DNA from: Lama guanicoe
Taxonomy: Eukaryota
DNA length: 64,000 nucleotides
NCBI GenBank assembly: GCA_013239625.1
Contig: MU053652.1
Coordinates: 2,544,001 to 2,608,000 of the forward strand
Direction of reading: 5' to 3'
The notes below the pieces were generated by a model, which was not told where the DNA came from, did not search any database, and saw only the letters and a list, made by a program, of their open reading frames with translations. Made by a program: the position numbers and the translations under genes. Position 1 is the stretch's first letter; each line of letters starts with the position of its first letter. This document shows, piece after piece, positions 7,764 through 62,835 of the stretch.

Positions 7764-9375
7764 CAAAAAAAAACCAGAATATACATTCTTTTCAAGTGCA
7801 CATGGAACATTCTCTGGGACAGACCACATACTAGGACACAAAAACAAGCCTCAACAAATTTAAGAGGATAAAAATTACTTCAGGCAGCTTTTCTGACCAC
7901 AATGGCATGAAGTTAGAAATTAACCATGGAAAGAGGGATGAGAAAAAACTAAACAACATGGAGACTAAACAACATGCTACGAAAAACCCAATGGGTCAAT
8001 AATGAAATCAAAGAGGAAAGAATATACCATGGAAAAATCTCTTCAGCAAGTGGTGTTGGGAAAGCTGGACAGCTGCATATAAATCAATGAAGTTAGCATA
8101 CTACCTCACATCATACACAAAAATAAACTGAAAATGGGTTCAAGACTTAAATATAATACAGGACACCATAAAACTCCTAGAAGGGAACATAAGCAAATTC
8201 TCTGACACAAATCACAGCAATGTTTTCCTAGGTCAGTCTCTCAAAGCAATAGAAACAAAAGCAAAACTAAACAAATGGGACCTAACCAAACTTACAAGCT
8301 TTTGAATATGAAAGAGAATCATAAACAAAATGAAAAGACAGCCTACAGAATGGGAGAAAATATTTGCAGATGATGCAACCAACAAGGGATTAATTTCCAA
8401 AATATACGAACAACTCATACAACTCAGTAACAGAAAAATAGACAACTCACTCAAATAATGGACAGAAGACCCAAACAGACATTTCTCCAAAGAAGACATC
8501 CAGGTGACCAACAGGCACTTGAAAAGAGGCTTAACGTCACTAATTATCAGAGAAATGCAAATAAAAAACTACAATGAGGTAACACCACATATTAGTCAGA
8601 ATGGCCATCATTAAAAAATATACAAATAATAAATGCTGGAGAGGGTGTGGAGAAAAGGGAACCCTACACTGTTGGTGGGAATGTATTTGGTGCAGCCACT
8701 ATGGAAAACAGCATGGAGATTTCTTTAAGAAACAGAAATATAGTTACCATGTGATCCAGCAATCCCACTCCTGGGCATATATTCAGAGAAAACTAATTCA
8801 AAAAGATACATGCACCCCAGTGCACACAGCAGCACTATTTACAACAGCCAAGACAAAAGCAACCTAAATGTCCACTGACAGATGAACGAAGATGATGTGG
8901 TGTGTGTGTACATATATATAAATATATAAATATATAGATACAGATATAGATAGATCAGAGTACTACTCAGCCATAAAAAAGAATGAAATAATTCCACCTA
9001 CAGCAACATGGATGGACCCAGAGATCATCATACTAAGTAAAGTAAATCAGACAGAAAAAGACAAATATCATATGATATCACTTATATGTGCAATCTAAAG
9101 TGATACAAATGAATTTATATACAAAATAGAAACAGACTCACAGACATAGGAAACAAACCTATGGTTACCAAAGGGGAAAGTGCAGGGAGGGATAAACTAG
9201 GACTTCGGGATTAGCAGATACAAACTACTATATATAAAATAAAGAACAAGGTCCTACTGGATAGCACAGAGAACTATGTCCAGTATCTTATAATATGATA
9301 AAGAATATATATGAATCACCATGCTGTATACCAGAAATCAACACAATGTTGTAAATGAATTATACTTCAATAAAA
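7764..9375 (+). mobile_element. 5'-truncated L1 with internal deletion of the RT region
   Basis: EN C-terminal motif (YTFFSSAHGTFSGTDHILGHK) at ~7780-7845, jump near 8020 to late ORF2 ([10 protein letters not shown]), then [10 protein letters not shown], 3'UTR, AATAAA at ~9369. Confidence 0.9.
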
Positions 9376-11093: not shown

Positions 11094-11232
11094 TTTTTGT
11101 TTTGTTTTGTTTTGTTTTTGGAGGGGGAGGCAATTAGGTTTATTTATTTATTTTTAACGGAGGTACTGGGGATTGAACTCACGACCTCGTGCATGCTAAG
11201 CACGCACTCTACCACTGAGCCATACCCTCCCC
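11094..11232 (-). mobile_element. tRNA-derived camelid SINE (Vic-1-like)
   Basis: Reverse complement reads GGGGAGGGTATGGCTCAGTGGTAGAG (A box)...GTGAGTTCAATCCCCAGTACCTCC (B box), aaacctaattgcctcccc, A-rich tail; ends ~55 bp from the exon 8 donor. Confidence 0.9.
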
Positions 11233-11270: not shown

Positions 11271-11378
<108 letters not shown>

Positions 11379-12085
11379 TTAAGGTAAAGCACAGAACAAC
11401 TGCAAATCCAGAGTAATTTCATTCATAAGTCTGTAATGAGTAGTGAAAATAACACACTTATTTTTTCAATACTAAGAATAAGAGGACTCATAAAAGTAAA
11501 AACATGACTTATAACTAAGTTTATAGCAATCATCTTATTCTTTTTCCTAATTGCAACTGGAAGCTATTTTCAATTTCTTTAGGACCAATGCCATAAACTA
11601 GCAAAGACACAGGATATTTCAAAAAACATAAGATAAAAATCTCCACTAGGAGTGACAAAGTGAATATGGAAAATAAAAACAGAATTAGATCTCAGGTCTG
11701 TAATTCCAGGGATGGTTTATTAGTATAAAATGAGCAGTTTTAAAGTTCATAAAACTAGCTACTGAAAACTAAGATGCTATCAATTTTATATTAATGATTA
11801 TTTCCTTACTGTATTAATTTTGTGACAATATTTCACAAATCAGTTCTCACATAATTTGCCAACTATTTTATTTGAGTACTGACTGACAAAATGTAGGATT
11901 CGCTTCTCTTTGATTCTTATTTACATCTTAAAGTTTAATAGAAAGAAGGTTTAAATATAATCAGTGAAAAATTTAAACTTCTGTACAAGAAAACAACTGT
12001 TCAACTTATATCTAATCTAACTTTGTATCAAATCTTTCATAAATGAAGATATAACTTCATTTCAATGGTTCAACAGGTTACAGGA

Positions 12086-14582
12086 TTTTTTTTTTTTTGA
12101 GTTGAGAATTTATTGAGTGCTTACTATGTCGGACACTGGACAAAGCTCTTTTTTTTTTTTAAGATAGAATCTCTCTTTAATTCAGAATTAAAATAGATGC
12201 GTGCCTGGTATTATCAATAAGTTTATCTAAGTGTTGCACATATTATCTTGACTTTTAACTTTTTTTAAAATTCCATCTGCTACTTTATTTTTTTTAATTT
12301 TTTATTGAGTTATAGTCATTTTATAATTTTGTGTCAAATTTCAGTGTAGAGCAATTTTTCAGTTATACATGAACATACATACATTCATTGTGACATTTTT
12401 TTCACTGTGAGCTACCACAAGATCTTGTATATATTTCCCTGTGCTATACAGTATAATCTTGTTTATCTAGTTTACATTTTTAAATCCCAATCTGTCCCTT
12501 CCCACCCCCCACCCCCTTGGCAACCACAAGTTTGTATTTTACGCCTATGAGTGTTTCTGTTTTGTATTTATGTTCTTTTTTTTAGATTCCACATATGAGC
12601 AATCTCATATGGTATTTTTCTTTCTCTTTCTGGCTTACTTCACTTAGAATGACATTCTCAGGAACACCCATGTTGCTGCAAATGGCATTATGTTGTCAGT
12701 TTTTATGGCTGAGTAGTATTCCATTGTATAAATATACCACATCTTCTTTATCCAGTCATCTGTTGTTGGACATTTAGGCTGTTTCCATGCCTTGGCTATT
12801 GTAAATAGTGCTGCTATGAACATTGGGGTGCAGGTGTCATCCTGAAGTAGGGTTCCTTCTGGATATATGCCCAGGAGCGGGATTCCTGGGTCATATGGTA
12901 AGTCTATTTCTAGTCTTTTGAGGAATCTCCATCCTGTTTTCCACAGTGGCTGCACCAAACTGCATTCCCACCAGCAGTGTAGGAGGGTTCCCTTTTCTCC
13001 ACAGCCTCTCCAGCATTTGTCATTTGTGGACTTTTGAATGATGGCCAGTCTGACTGGTGTGAGGTGATACCTCATTGTAGTTCTGATTTGCATTTCTATG
13101 ATAATTAGTGATATTGAGCATTTTTTCATGTGCCTATTGATCATTTGTATTTCTTCCTTGGAAATTGCTTGTTTAGGTCTTCTGCCCATTTTTGGATTGG
13201 GTTGTTTGTTTTTTTCTTATTAAGTCATAACAGGTGCATATATATTCTGGAGATCAAGACTTTGTCGGTTTCATTTGCAAAAATTTTCTCCCATTCCGTA
13301 GGTTGTCATTTTGTTTTACTTATGGTTTCCTTTGCTGGTTTATATAAAGTAAGTCATTAAATCCTGTAACCTGTTAAAAACTCTCACCAAAGTGGGTATA
13401 GAGGGAACATATCTTTTATTTATTCTTGCTTTTATTTCTATAGCTTGGGCAGACTGCCCTAGGAGAATATTTCTGAGATGTATATCAGATAATGTTTTGC
13501 CTATGTTTTCTTCTAGGAGGTTTACTGTTATCTTGTCTTATGTTTAAGTCTTTGATCCATTTTGAGTTTATCTTTGTGTATGGTGTAAGGGCGTGTTCTA
13601 GCTTCATTGCTTTACATGCTGCTGTCCAGTTTTCCCAACACCATTTGCTGAAGAGACTGTCCTTATTCCATTGTATATTCTTGCCTCCTTTNNNNNNNNN
13701 NNNNNNNNNNNNNNNNNNNNNNNNNNNNNNNNNNNNNNNNNNNNNNNNNNNNNNNNNNNNNNNNNNNNNNNNNNNNNNNNNNNNNNNNNNNNNNNNNNNN
13801 NNNNNNNNNNNNNNNNNNNNNNNNNNNNNNNNNNNNNNNNNNNNNNNNNNNNNNNNNNNNNNNNNNNNNNNNNNNNNNNNNNNNNNNNNNNNNNNNNNNN
13901 NNNNNNNNNNNNNNNNNNNNNNNNNNNNNNNNNNNNNNNNNNNNNNNNNNNNNNNNNNNNNNNNNNNNNNNNNNNNNNNNNNNNNNNNNNNNNNNNNNNN
14001 NNNNNNNNNNNNNNNNNNNNNNNNNNNNNNNNNNNNNNNNNNNNNNNNNNNNNNNNNNNNNNNNNNNNNNNNNNNNNNNNNNNNNNNNNNNNNNNNNNNN
14101 NNNNNNNNNNNNNNNNNNNNNNNNNNNNNNNNNNNNNNNNNNNNNNNNNNNNNNNNNNNNNNNNNNNNNNNNNNNNNNNNNNNNNNNNNNNCATTAGTGT
14201 AATAAAAATAATTTTTGAACGTTAATCTTGTAACCTGCTACCTTGCTGAATTCTTCGATTATTTCTAGTAGTTTTTGTGTGGACTTTTTAGGGTTTTCTA
14301 TATATAGTATCATGTCATCTGCAATATAGTGACACTTTTACCTCTTCCTTTCCAATTTGGATCCCATTTATTTCTCTCTCTTGACTGACTGCTGTGGCTA
14401 GGACTTCCAAGACTATGTTGAATAGGAGTGATGACAGTGGGCAGCCTTGTCTTGTTCCAGATTTTAGTGGGAAGCTTTTGAGTTTTTCATCGTTGAGTAC
14501 TGTGCTGGTTGTAGGTTTGTCATATATAGCTTTTATTATGTTGAGGTATGTTCCCTCTATACCCACTTTGGTGAGAGTTTTT
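12086..14582 (-). mobile_element. Young 5'-truncated L1 (sense to MKLN1) with 3' transduced sequence and a 17-bp TSD
   Basis: ORFs 14315..14566 ([10 protein letters not shown]...GTRQGCPLS) and 12644..13189 (ORF2 C-terminus); TSD AACAGGTTACAGGATTT at 12072-12088 and 14583-14599; target reads TTT/AA, an L1 endonuclease-type site. Confidence 0.95.
13692..14191. other. Assembly gap (500 N) within L1
   Basis: Run of N. Confidence 1.
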
Positions 14583-15129
14583 AACAGGTTACAGGATTTA
14601 ATGACTTACTTGATATAAACCAGAAAACTTGAGGCTGTCTTTTTAAAAACTCTCCCATTAATTGAAATATATTACTTTAGCCACTAACTTTTCCTGTATC
14701 AGTTTTCTCCTATATAAAATAGAGAACAACCAACTTTTTACTATTTCACATGGGTATTAGGAAAAAGACTGAAAAGCCAGTTTTTATATATAGTAAATAA
14801 GATGCAAAACTAAAGCTTTATTCAAGTGTTAATCTTTCAGAAGTTTCCTGCAAATTCTTTCTCCTATGTATTAGTTAGGTTTAGATTTTGCAGCTCATAA
14901 TTGGTGAAGTTTTACCCTTTTCTTCCTTCTTTCCCTCAGTCAATAAAGTCAGTACTGCCACTTCCAAGGACATACTAAGAAAACACTAAAATAAATTTAT
15001 TGTCAATATGTTTGCATTTTATATTTTGATCTATTAGGTTTCAAATATAGAACTACAGTCTGTTTGCTACAACATACACTTCTTTGAAGAAAATTACCTC
15101 ATGTGACTGATAAAATAGGAAAATGATCC

Positions 15130-15941: not shown

Positions 15942-16118
<177 letters not shown>

Positions 16119-30499: not shown

Positions 30500-33400
30500 G
30501 GATTTCTGTTCAAGATGGTGGAGGAGTAGGACCAGAAGTTCGCCTCCTCTCAGGATCACAACAAAACCACAACTGACTGCTGAGTAACCATCAATAAAAA
30601 AAGACAAAAAAGATCTTCAACTGGAAACATAAAGAGGGAACCTGGGATGACAGGAGGGCATACTCATGAGATAATAATAGGACCCCCTTACCCTGATGGG
30701 TGGGCAACCCACAAGCTGGAGAAAAATTACATTGCAGAGGCCCTCCCACAGGAGTGAGAGCTGTGAGCATCACATCAGGCTCCCCAGACTAGGGTTCTGA
30801 AACTGGGAGGAGGAGACCCCAGAACATCTGGTTTTGAAAGCCAGTGGGGCTTACTTGCAGGAGCTGCATAGTACAGAGACTTCACTTTCTTGGGAAGTGC
30901 ACTAAGAATCTTGCATGCACCAGGACCAAAGGCAGAGGCACTGATTTCATAGGAACCCAGGACAGAACTGCCTGCTGGTTTTGGAATGTCTCCTGGGGAG
31001 GTAGGGGGCAGCTGCAGCTCATCCAGGGGACATAAGAGGCAGGGGTGGACATTCGAGGAATGTTCATTTATATGAGCTTTCCTGGAGACTGGCACCTTGC
31101 TTGGGTCACTGGTGCTAAGACATGGCCCCACTCAATAGTTTGTAGGTTTAAGTGCTGGGAAGCCTCAGGCCAAACAGTATACTCAGTGGGAATGCAGCCC
31201 CAACCATCAGCAGATTTCCTGAGCCCACAGCCACCTCTAGACACACCCCTAGACACAGCTCTGCCCACCAGAGGGCCAGGACCCAGCTCTATCCAGCAGT
31301 GGGGCAGGTACCAACCCCTTCTGCCTGCTGCACAAGCCTCTCGTCCAGCCTTACCCACCAGAGGGAAGATACCAAAAGTAAGAAAACAAAATTTCAACAG
31401 CCTGTGGAAGGAGCCTGCAAAGACAGGCCAGACTATCCTGGGATGAGCTGGACCCTGGCCCTTAGATGACAAATAGTGCCCTGCTGGAATGCATAGGAAG
31501 TCTCATACAGAGGACCACTTCTCCAAGGTCGAGCATCGAAACTAACCTACATAAAAATATAAATAGAAATTCAGACAAAATGAGATAGCAGAGGAATACG
31601 TTCCAGGCAAAGGCACAAGATACAATCCTGGAAGAAGAAATAAATGATGAGGAGATAGGGAATCTATCCAAGAAAGAGTTTAGAGTAATGATTGTGCAGG
31701 TCATCAGAGAACTCAGGAGAACAGATGAACAGAGTGAAGTTTTTAGCAAAAAGTAAGAAAATATAAAGAAGAACACCCAAAATAAGTTGAAGAATACAAT
31801 TACTGAAATGAATAATACACTAGAAGGAGCCAAGAATAGACTACACGAGGCAGAAGAACAGATCAATGAGCTAGAAGACAGAGTAGTTAAAATCACTACT
31901 GTAAAACAGAAAAAAGAAAAAAGAATGAAAAGAAATGAGGATGGTTTAAGAGACCTCTGGGACAACATGAAGCACACTAATATCTGCATTATAGAGATCC
32001 CAGAAAGAGAAGAGAGAGAGAAAAGACCTGAGAAAATATCTGAAGAGATAATAGCTGAAAACTTCCCTAGATTGGGAAACAGTCACTCAAGTCCAGAAGT
32101 GCAGAGACCCATACAGGATTAACCCAAAGAGGAATATGCTGAGGCACATAGTAATCAAATTGACAACAATTACAAATAAAGAGAAAATATTAAAATCAGC
32201 AAGAGAAAAGCAACAAATAACATACAGGAACTCCCATAAGATTATCAGCTGATTTTTCAGAAGAAACTCTACAGGCCAGAAAGGAGTGGCACAATATATT
32301 TAAAGTGATGAAAGAGAAAAATCTACAATCAAGAATATTCTACCCAGCAAGGTTTTCATTCAGATTTGATGGAGAAATCAAAAGCTTCACAGATAAGCAA
32401 AAGCTAAAGAATTCAGTACCACCAAACCAGATTTACAACAACTGTTAAAGGAACTTCTAGGTAGAAAAGAAAAGACCACAACTAGAAACAAGAAAATTAC
32501 AAAATGGGAAAGCTCACTGATAAAGGTAAACATTCAGTAAAGGTAGGAAATCATCCACACACAAACAGGGAAGTTGAAAGACAAAAGTAGTAAAAATCAT
32601 CTGTATATACAACAAGCAGTTAAAGGATACCCAAAACAATTAGATGTAAAATATGATATCAAAACCTATAATTGTGAGAGGAGGAGGGTATGAATCCAGG
32701 ACATCTAAAATGCATTTGAAATTAAGAGATCAGCAACTTAAAACAATCATGTGTATATATAGACTTCTATACCAAAACCTCATGGTAACCCCAAATCAAA
32801 AATCTATAATAGATATACACACAAAAAAGAAAGAGGAATCTAAATGTAAAGCTATAGTCATCAGACTACAAGAGAACAAAAAGAAGGAAAAAAGACCTAC
32901 AAAAACAAATCTAAAACAACAAAATGGCAATAAGAACATACATATCAATAATTATCTTAAATGTAAACACTCCAATCAAAAGACAAATTACAGGCCAATG
33001 TCACTTACGAATATAGATGCAAAAATCCTCAACAAAATACTAGTAAATTAACTCCAACAATGAATTAAAAGGATCATACACCATGATCAAATGGGATTTA
33101 TTCCAGGGATGTAAGGATTTTTCAATATCTGCAAATCAATGTGATACACAACATTAACAAACTGAAGAATAAAAACCATATGATCATCTCAATAGATGCA
33201 GAAAAAGCTTCTGATAAAATTCAACATGCATTTATGATAAAAATTCTCCAGAAAATGGGCACAGAGGAAACATACCTCAATATAATGAAGGCCATATATG
33301 ACAAACCCACAGCTAACATACTTAATGGTGAAAAGATAAAAGCATTTCCTCTAAGATCAGGAACAAGACAAGGATGCCCACTCTTGTCGCTTTTATTCAA

Positions 33401-35535
33401 CAGTTTTGGAAGTACTAGCCACAGCAATCAGAGAAGAAAAACAAATAAAAGGAATCCAAACTGGAAAAGAAGTAAAACTGTCACTGTCTACAGATAAAAT
33501 GATACTATATATAGAAAATCTTAAAGCTGCTACCAGAAAACTACTAGAGCTCATCAATGAATTTGGTAAAGTCCCAGGATATAAAGTTAATATATAGAAA
33601 TAAGCTGCATTTCTATATACCAACAAAATAGCAGGAAAAAAATTAAGAAAAGAACCCCATTTACCATCACATCAAAAAGAATAAAATACCTAGGAATAAA
33701 CTTAACTAAGGAGGCAAAGGACCTGTACTCCGAAAACTGTAAGACAATGACGAAAGAAACTGAAGATGACACAAACAGATGGAAAGATACACCATGTTCT
33801 TGGATTGGAAATGTCAATATTGTTAAAACTGCCATACTACCCAGGGCAATATACAGACTCAATGCAATCCCTATCAAATTACCAATGGCACTTTTCACAG
33901 AAGTAGAACAAAAAAATTTTTAATTTGTATGGAAATAGAAAAGACCTCAAATAGCCAAAATAATCTTGAGAAAGAAGAATGAAGCTGGGGGAATCATGCT
34001 CCCTGACTTCAGACTATATACTACAAATCTTCAGTAATCAAAACAGTGTGATACTGGCACAAAAAAAACAGACACACGGATCAATGGAACAGGGTAGAAA
34101 ATCCAGAAATAAACTCATGCACCTATAGTCAATTAATCTATGACAAAGGAGATAAGAATACACAATGGAGAAAAGACAGCCTCTTCAATAAGTGATGCTG
34201 GGAAAACTGGACAGCTATGTGTAAGAAAATGAAATTAGAACATTCTCTAATACTATTTACAAAAATAAACCCCAAATGGACTAAAGATCTAAATGTAAGA
34301 CTGAACACTATAAAACTCCTAGAGGAAAACAAGGGTAGAATACTGTTTGACATAAATCACAGCAATATTTTTTGGATCAGTCTCCTAGAGTAAAGGAAAT
34401 AAAAGCAAAAATAAATGGGATGTAATTAAACTTCTACTCTTTTGTACAGCAAAGTAAATCATAAACAAAATGAAAAGAAAACCTACAGAATGGGAGAAAA
34501 TATTTGCAAATGACGTGACCAACAAGGGACTAATTTCCAAAATATACAAACAGCTCCTACAGTTTAGTATCAAAACAAACAAACAAACAAACAACCCAAA
34601 CAAAAAATGGGCACAAGACCTAAACAGACATTTCTCCAAAGAAGACACCTGGATGGCCAAAAGGCACATGAAAAGATGCTCAATATCACTAATTATTAGA
34701 GAAATGCAATTCAAAACTACAATGAGAGATCACCTCACATTGGCCAGAAAGGCCATCATTAAAAAGTCTACAATAAATGCTGGAGAAGTTGTGGAGACAA
34801 AGGAACCCTCCTACACCATTGGTGGGAACGTAAATTGGGTGCAGTCATTATGGAGAACAGTATGGAAGTTCCTTAAAAAACTAAAGAGACTTACCATATT
34901 GTCCAGCAATCCCACTTCTGGGCATATATACAGAGAAAACTCTAATTCGAAAAGACACATGCATCCCAATGTTCATAGCAGCATTATTTACAAAAGCCAA
35001 GGAAACAACCTAAATGTCCACTGACAGATGAATGGATAAAGAAGCTATGGTATATATACACAATGGAATACCACTCAGCCATCAAAAAAGAATAAAATAA
35101 TGCCATTTGCAGCAACATGGATGGACCTGGAGATTGTCATTTTAAGTGAAGTAAGCCAGAAACAGGAAAAAATACCACATTACACCGCTTGTATGTTGAA
35201 TCTAAAAAAAAGACACATGAACTTATTTACAAAACAGAAACAGATTCACAGATATAGAGAACAAACTTGTGGTTATCAGCAGGTAAAGGGGGTGGGAAAG
35301 GAGAAATTGCAAATTCCAAGATTTGCAGATACTAACTACAATATATAAAATAGACAACAAGTTTATAGTGTACAGCACAGGGAACTATATTCAATATCTT
35401 GTGGTAACCTATAATGAAAAAGAATATCAAAATGAATATATGTATGTATATGTATGACTGAAACATTATGCTGTACACCAGAAATTGACACAACATTGTA
35501 AACTGACTACACTTCAATAAAAAAGAATGTAAATT
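30500..35535 (+). mobile_element. Near full-length degenerate L1 (5'UTR, ORF1, spacer, ORF2 lacking the endonuclease domain, 3'UTR), inserted into an older L1M
   Basis: Starts ggatttctgttcaagatggtgg; ORF1 ~31580-32460; ORF2 start ~32923; RT motifs NYRPMSLTNIDAKILNKIL and [14 protein letters not shown] ~35516; degenerate TSD aaaaatctcct / aaaaactctt; older L1 sequence on both sides (~30100-30490, ~35545-36400). Confidence 0.93.
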
Positions 35536-47347: not shown

Positions 47348-47499
47348 TTTTTATTTTTTTAATTAATTTTTAATCAGTTTTTTGGGGGGAGGGAGGTAAT
47401 TAAGTTTATCTATTTTTAATGGAGGTACTGGGGACTGAACCCAGGACCTTGTGCTTGTTAAGCATGTGTTCTACCGCTGAGTTCTTTCTATCCTCCCCC
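47348..47499 (-). mobile_element. Vic-1-like SINE
   Basis: ggaggtactggggactgaacccaggaccttgtgcttgttaagcatgtg on + strand, T-rich tail. Confidence 0.85.
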
Positions 47500-47523
47500 A
47501 ATCTCTTTCTCGCTCTCATCTTC

Positions 47524-61479: not shown

Positions 61480-62835
61480 TTTATATGTATACCAGGGGAC
61501 GAACAAGTAAGTAAATGGATGGTGGATGACAGGAGTTAAGCTTCTCACCGTGGAGTGGGAAGTTACAAAAAAGCAAAGAGGAGGCTGGAATGAACCCAAC
61601 GGTTCTGAAACAGAGTCAGAGACATCAGTGTGAACTCATATTTAGCTTAATATAGACAGAAATAGATTCAGAAGTAATTATATGTGTGTGCATACACACA
61701 CATGCACACTGACACAAATAATATTCCTAGTTCTGTTTACTTCCTAGCTCTGTTCACTACAGGGACTAGAAGCAGTGTTACCCCAGTAGCAGTGAGTACA
61801 CCCAACACCAAATCTTGGTTTCTACACACCATAGTCCAGTAAAAGAAAATGGAGATTCTTGGAGAAGTAAATGATGCTGGGTTAGAGCAGGGAATTCAGA
61901 AAATAAGCCTAGAGCATCTTGCAATGTTCAAAACAACAACAACAACAAAGATAGGGGCCATGTCAAAGGGACACAGAGGAGCCAACATGAAAGAATGAAA
62001 GAATAAATGGCCAAGAATGAAGGAAGGAATGGCCAAAATAATTTAAACAAAATAAATAATGTAGTATTGGATTAGAACCCAAAGTATAAACATCCCTGAA
62101 TCTGTACTGATAATAACTGCAGTATAACAATCAGAAAAACATCAGGCAAATTCAAATTAAGGACCAGTCAACAAAATATATGAGCAGTACTCCTCAAAAC
62201 TCAATACAATGAAAAACAAGGAAAGACAAAAAACGTTCATAGACCAGAGGAGAGTATGGAAGCAAGACAATTAAAAGTAATACCTTGGTAAATACAGGAC
62301 AGAAATAGACTCATGGACAGAGAATACAGACTTGTGGTTACCAGGGGGGTGGAGGGTGGGAAGGGATAGACTGGGATTTCAAAATTGTAGAATAGATAAA
62401 CAAGATTACACTGTATAGCACAGGGAAATATACACAAAATGTTATGATAAATCACAGAGAAAAAAATGTGACAATGAGTGTGTATATGTCCATGAATGAC
62501 TGAAAAATTGTGCTGAACACTGGAATTTGACACAATATTGTAAAATGATTATAAATCAATAAAAAATGTTAAAAAAAAGAGTAATACCTTGGATGGAATC
62601 TTAGGTCAGAAAGAAGACATTACTGGGAAAACTAATGAAATCCAAACAAAACGTGGAGTTTAGGTAATACTAATGCATCATTGTTGGTATCTTGGTCATG
62701 ACAAATGTACCATGGTCATATAAGATGTTAGCAGGAGGAGAAACTAGGTGAGGGACATATGGGAACTCTGTACCACCTCTGCAATATTTCCGTAAATCTG
62801 AAATCAACCTAAAATTAAAAGGATATTTTTAAAAA
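61480..62835 (+). mobile_element. Old L1MC-like 3'UTR, interrupted by a young L1 fragment
   Basis: ttcctagctctgttcact, gtgacaaatgtacc-like motif, tatgggaactctgtacc...gtaaatctgaaat. Confidence 0.7.
62289..62579 (+). mobile_element. Young L1 3'UTR fragment (same family as 12284-14582)
   Basis: TSD AGTAATACCTTGG at 62276-62288 and 62580-62592; AATAAA and poly(A). Confidence 0.92.

Follow-up and report, generated by a model that had tools for sequence, protein, structure and literature searches.

Several described systems build composite 3' ends on retrotransposed elements. In a human multigenerational L1 cascade, an insertion keeps its first 3' tag and adds a second one from an intermediate copy (PMC13009371). 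In a human L1 transduction family, a poly(A) of 17 nt lies inside the insertion, ahead of a short tag (PMC6425141), and 27 concatenated transductions, with tags that build up in sequence, have been described for SVA elements (PMC12593883). Among L1 3' transductions of the dog, the source adjoins an L1 in 3 of the 27 that were mapped, so that parentless sources are the rule (PMC13141329). Other composite insertions include those that join two RNAs, of which nine are reported, in either orientation (PMC11702581), and templated insertions at L1 sites, with 22 cases whose templates are typically <250 bp and within 15 bp of the site (10.1101/2024.08.27.596794). A search of the camelid LINE-1 literature, mainly among open-access texts, led to a repeat census, in which we saw no analysis of transduction.

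Here we describe an L1 insertion in an intron of the muskelin gene, within a 64-kb stretch of DNA that was analysed as a whole (the window). It resembles the human transduction family and the SVA concatemers as described in PMC6425141 and PMC12593883 in having an internal poly(A) before a short tag, a TSD of 16-17 nt and a degenerate TT/AAAA site. It differs in the species, in the element where SVA is concerned, and in that no family members were found for it. All three loci were located for the human cascade of PMC13009371, whereas here only the empty second home of the second tag came to light; moreover, unlike that cascade, the muskelin-intron event is an old germline one, present in all four sequencing runs compared. 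The dog transductions of PMC13141329 likewise have a source without an L1 and a parent that segregates, but they are single tags on dimorphic insertions. Serial transduction being a known process, the muskelin-intron L1 is most likely a clean non-human example of it.

Anatomy of the insertion

All coordinates are positions within the 64-kb window, and the element is read on the minus strand, which is also the strand of its host gene, muskelin. The Pfam domain Muskelin_N was above cut-off for three of six exon peptides, and one exon peptide equals muskelin from the PDB at 48 of 49 positions. The L1 lies in sense orientation relative to muskelin, between exons of 78 and 66 nt which we take to be muskelin exons; going by exon sizes, the intron that received the insertion is presumably intron 7. 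Several poly(A) signals of the insertion are placed in the sense of the gene, about 0.75-0.95 kb ahead of the next muskelin exon. With its flank, the target site reads TT/AAAT and is of the endonuclease type. The parts of the locus are as follows.

16007-16084, minus strand: upstream exon, 78 nt, from the splice-site scan, with no Pfam match of its own
14583-14599, either strand: TSD on the 5' side of the L1, identical at 17/17 to 12072-12088, with no extension possible
12307-14582, minus strand: 5'-truncated L1, holding ORF2 (RT region through C-terminus) and the 3'UTR, by three-frame translation; 70-84% identity to other L1s of the window
12284-12306, minus strand: 3' end of the L1 family, AATAAA plus A-rich tail, where other L1 copies of the window also end
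12161-12283, minus strand: segment 1, the first tag, 123 nt, with ATTAAA at 12176-12181 and no other copy in the window
12149-12160, minus strand: internal A12 tract, the putative tail of a parent insertion, with ATTAAA 15 nt upstream
12099-12148, minus strand: segment 2, the second tag, 50 nt, with AATAAA at 12109-12114, 10 nt before the tail
12086-12098, minus strand: final poly(A) tail, A13, of which three A belong to the TSD, leaving a net tail of 10
12072-12088, either strand: TSD on the 3' side of the L1 (the priming end), identical at 17/17 to 14583-14599
11288-11353, minus strand: downstream exon, 66 nt, from the splice-site scan, with no Pfam match of its own; 719 nt past the insertion

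A first-pass annotation of this DNA had claimed that a 17-bp TSD encloses more than the L1, and that three modules of signal and tail lie inside this one duplication. Both claims hold: the two copies are identical at all 17 positions and have both segments between them, and the signals and A tracts are located where that annotation had put them. On the minus strand, the order is TSD, 5'-truncated L1, L1 tail, segment 1, A12, segment 2, A13 and TSD, with 2,494 nt between the direct TSD copies, including a gap of 500 N. The TSD 17-mer has three matches in the window at up to two mismatches, against 0.02 expected; the third (13359-13375, minus strand) falls inside an inverted insert that is treated in the last section. 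One TPRT event inserted the L1 together with segment 1, A12, segment 2 and the tail. A TSD, an endonuclease-type site, a terminal tail and non-L1 sequence, which are among the marks of a partnered L1 3' transduction, are found here, and between the tags there is an internal poly(A) with its own signal, which is one of the marks of a multigenerational one. By behaviour and anatomy, the insertion is probably a multigenerational transduction.

At the L1 end, minus-strand AATAAA occurs at 12284-12289 and 12301-12306, with ATTAAA also at 12293-12298, and there are plus-strand T runs at 12288-12295 and 12298-12303. ORF2 holds stops and frame changes, and an assembly gap of 500 N occupies 13692-14191. 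This L1 copy is dead. Older L1 copies, on the plus strand and antisense to muskelin, are found at 33235-35524, 8010-9176, 62289-62578 and 1521-2135, with 70-84% identity to the muskelin-intron L1.

Segment 2 may be related to the end of an ancient repeat of MIR or L2 type. A sensitive blastn search of segments 1 and 2 against the window returned short weak matches only, an Rfam search of the segments gave no match, and the RNA fold of the 3' modules is ordinary (z -0.41).

Some further features of the locus were recorded. The ATTAAA signal of segment 1 is part of a near-perfect 17-nt palindrome (12176-12192). At 14583-14586, the final bases of the TSD agree with an older L1 at three of four positions, and the 5' junction may accordingly have 1-4 nt of microhomology. 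RNA of the L1 ORF2 at 14223-14239 could pair with 14 of the 17 bases of the TSD overhang, a match equalled by 8 of 2,000 shuffled TSDs; this would be a twin-priming site, yet the L1 is not inverted and the pairing may be due to chance. Beyond the 66-nt exon, by 59 nt, the minus strand of 11158-11229 has a tRNA-like head (43.2 bits to Rfam RF00005) with an A-rich tail behind it. By its appearance this is a tRNA-derived SINE, and a similar one stands after an L1 tail near 47400-47500.

The two strands of the window contain 20 tracts of ten or more A residues. Only the A12 and A13 tracts of the insertion have an AATAAA or ATTAAA ending 8-30 nt upstream; none of the other 18 has such a signal, and random positions have one in 1,094 of 18,126 cases (6%). 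The usual distance of a poly(A) signal is given as 10-30 nt in PMC13009371. These counts support, but do not prove, an origin of the middle A12 tract by polyadenylation: a signal would stand ahead of it by chance in about 6% of cases, which is low without being negligible.

Junctions, depth and second homes in public contigs

At least 20 of the 24 runs listed, from 8 studies and five organisms, contain 0.74-0.92 of the words of 11800-12290; one of these runs may derive from the window's own sample. Contigs from four runs (X1, X2, X3 and X12; four organisms and four studies) were compared at a likeness of at least 82%. In each of the four, a single contig leads from the flank through the TSD and A13 to 12128 with 0 differences, and none of them showed an allele of the muskelin site that lacks the insertion. 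A contig of 217 nt covers 12101-12317 with one difference in X1-X3. In X12, 12099-12199 is covered at 0 differences and there is no cover of approximately 12200-12260; an extra piece, at a depth of about 31.8, ends at 12199 beside a CpG. This piece is ambiguous: it could come from the source of segment 1 or from an allele that diverges at the 12200 CpG, or the palindrome at 12176-12192 could have given rise to it. At position 12221, X1, X2 and X3 agree on A against the G of the window, which would be either a private allele or an assembly error. Two contig joints, whose sides measure 20 and 25 nt, were put down to chance resemblance to the tails of other L1s and set aside.

The first-pass annotation had also allowed for the segments being part of the family consensus 3'UTR. 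Read depth does away with this alternative. Depth over segment 1 (12178-12267) is 8.58, 37 and 14.5 in X1, X2 and X3, against 12, 42.9 and 14.6 for the flank, and the residual depth after subtraction of the segment's own contig is 0.0 in these three runs, making segment 1 single-copy in three of the four. The L1 end (12304-12321), in contrast, has a summed depth of 3e5-9e5. Segment 1 is therefore not family 3'UTR. Contigs of sibling L1s diverge at 12283-12290 into T-rich loose ends, and both segments are absent from the six other L1 ends in the window.

A break in the contigs recurs in all four runs, one contig ending at 12128 and the next starting at 12099 or 12101. If these are 31-mer graph contigs, as we presume, the positions of the breaks indicate that another locus has about 30 exact letters from about the last poly(A) junction. 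A candidate for this locus is record 19 of X2 (1,395 nt; depth 38.6, about one copy), which matches 12101-12150 at 48 of 50 positions from its first letter and stops two T into A12; its 1,345 further letters lie outside the compared stretch. An identity of 96% over the whole of segment 2, with both ends on the boundaries of the segment, argues against a chance repeat relative, and the two T at 12149-12150 with which the match ends would fit a nick site. Since the residual X2 depth over 12142-12267 is 0, record 19 is without segment 1. Among the matches listed, a second copy of segment 2 occurs in one of the four runs only (X2), while the residual depth on segment 2 is worth 1-3 further copies in all four.

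Altogether, these data support segment 2 having a home of its own elsewhere, without segment 1 and empty of L1; neither an L1 nor segment 1 is present on X2 record 19 among the matches listed. For segment 1, no source was found in X1-X3 at a likeness of at least 82%, an absence that, given the record filter, proves nothing.

Origin of the composite 3' end

We regard a serial 3' transduction of an L1, over two generations and by way of a parent that was not fixed, as the probable best explanation of this arrangement. A full-length L1 at a locus A would have been read past its own AATAAA, with cleavage 15 nt after an ATTAAA in the flank, and a copy would have landed at a locus B as L1, segment 1 and poly(A). 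From the parent at B, transcription would have continued through both signals, with cleavage 10 nt after an AATAAA in the flank of B. This RNA would then have been inserted in the muskelin intron by target-primed reverse transcription at TT/AAAT, with 5' truncation and a TSD of 17 bp. The parent at B would be a segregating allele, absent from the genome in which the sequence of B is seen. The empty home of segment 2 favours this course of events. It also draws support from the single TSD around the whole, from the signal ahead of each of the two A tracts, from the single-copy depth of segment 1 and from the contig break common to the four runs, and a source site empty of L1 would be normal in view of the dog data. 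Against it stands the need for a source of segment 1 and for a parent L1 at B, neither of which was found. It is also weakened by the listing of a second segment 2 in one of the four runs only, by the possible kinship of this segment with an ancient repeat, by the 1-3 further copies that its residual depth would represent, and by the chance of about 6% for a signal ahead of the middle tract. The serial reading proposed by the first-pass annotation is thus upheld in its anatomy, but not in the two loci it called for, namely a source of segment 1 and an L1 bearing segment 1 at the home of segment 2.

The same anatomy might have arisen by a single transduction, if segment 1, a genomic A12 and segment 2 had been contiguous behind one source L1 that was later rearranged or lost, with record 19 as a paralog or remnant. 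A single deletion at a later time would account as well for the lack of a second segment 1 in X1-X3, and tracts of ten or more A are common, with 20 in the window. However, the second segment 2 among the matches listed stops at the A12 boundary, so that the breakpoint of such a deletion would have to coincide with it, and 15 nt ahead of the middle tract there is a signal, whereas none of the 18 other tracts has one upstream. We hold this course to be unlikely; contiguity of both segments at one locus, which the first-pass annotation had named as a possibility that would speak for a single event, has lost ground, the listed second copy of segment 2 not being followed by A12 and segment 1. Somewhat less credit still goes to one hop combined with a template switch, in which reverse transcription would begin on a cellular RNA ending in segment 2, copy 50 nt, and then jump, through pairing of TT with AA, to the poly(A) tail of an L1 RNA that includes segment 1, with no parent at B. 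The scheme predicts that locus B is empty and that the match to it ends in TT, as is observed; both parts have the same orientation inside one TSD, and the inverted insert would be another copying accident in the same insertion. Two-RNA insertions in the same orientation have indeed been reported (PMC11702581). On the other hand, the L1 chimeras catalogued in PMC13174262 have the non-L1 RNA at the 5' end or involve abundant RNAs, while stacked transductions with internal poly(A) are well documented.

We know of no transcript that ends at segment 2, which also counts against a template switch. There is, finally, the view that the segments are family 3'UTR, native intron or a product of assembly. 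The gap inside the muskelin-intron L1 lends it something, but it is contradicted by the single-copy depth, by the absence of the segments from the six other L1 ends, by their position inside a perfect TSD, and by contigs that span 12101-12317 in three of the four runs and 12099-12199 in the fourth; we consider it highly improbable. Two further schemes were rejected. A nested insertion into an earlier retrocopy of segment 2 does not agree with an L1 5' end that abuts the outer TSD and with there being no inner duplication; twin priming does not agree with ORF2 reading in the same direction on both sides of the gap.

An inverted copy of the 5' junction inside the L1

The body of the element contains one more anomaly, read from the assembly only and absent from the first-pass annotation.

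13335-13414, plus strand: inverted insert, 80 nt, an inverted copy of 14544-14623

The template of this insert is the element's own 5' junction, since 14544-14623 consists of 39 nt of L1 end, the 17-nt TSD and 24 nt of flank. The inverted repeat measures 84 nt and is identical at 81 of 84 positions, with an 80-nt core at 78 of 80. Compared with two older L1s, the element is 46 nt longer on balance, so that about 30-34 nt of L1 gave way to the insert, and CAG is common to both sides at one of its joints. An assembly artefact is possible, the L1 having a gap, but the presence of two mismatches and of two separate joints speaks against it.

As in the templated insertions at L1 sites, a short template lies at the insertion site, and here it spans the TSD. 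The resemblance to the cases of 10.1101/2024.08.27.596794 and PMC11702581 lies in a template of <250 bp that is drawn from the insertion site; unlike theirs, the muskelin-intron template is a finished 5' junction and its copy was placed 1.1 kb inside the L1. The first-strand copying proposed in these two sources was rejected for the inverted insert on these grounds, the template including the finished 5' junction. Among the cases as described in the main text of 10.1101/2024.08.27.596794, we saw no template stated to include the L1's own 5' end.

To judge from the arrangement of the repeat, the insert may have arisen either from a fold-back of the second strand onto its own start or from the later repair of a break with a template 1.1 kb away. 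By a rough estimate, only a few in a hundred donors picked at random from within about 1.2 kb would lie across the junction, which favours a coupling to integration. In the case of a fold-back, the second strand, primed from the 3' overhang of the target, would have been extended for about 1.1 kb before it switched to itself as template. Having read 80 nt across the point at which it began (L1 end, TSD and flank), it would have gone back through a microhomology of 3 nt, with about 30 nt skipped. According to PMC11702581, it is not settled in which order 5' joining and second-strand synthesis take place.

That this dead L1 is a record of both two earlier hops and a fold-back during second-strand synthesis is a doubtful proposition. 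Should the inverted junction copy be real and tied to integration, it would gain in importance because of that unsettled order. If the fold-back is true, it would be a germline fossil of a second strand that begins at the 5' junction and is able to change template, and L1s in which the element's own 5' junction recurs internally in inverted form would become a class that can be searched for. Serial transduction, for its part, would provide two tags for tracing a single L1 lineage, whose parent was seemingly never fixed.
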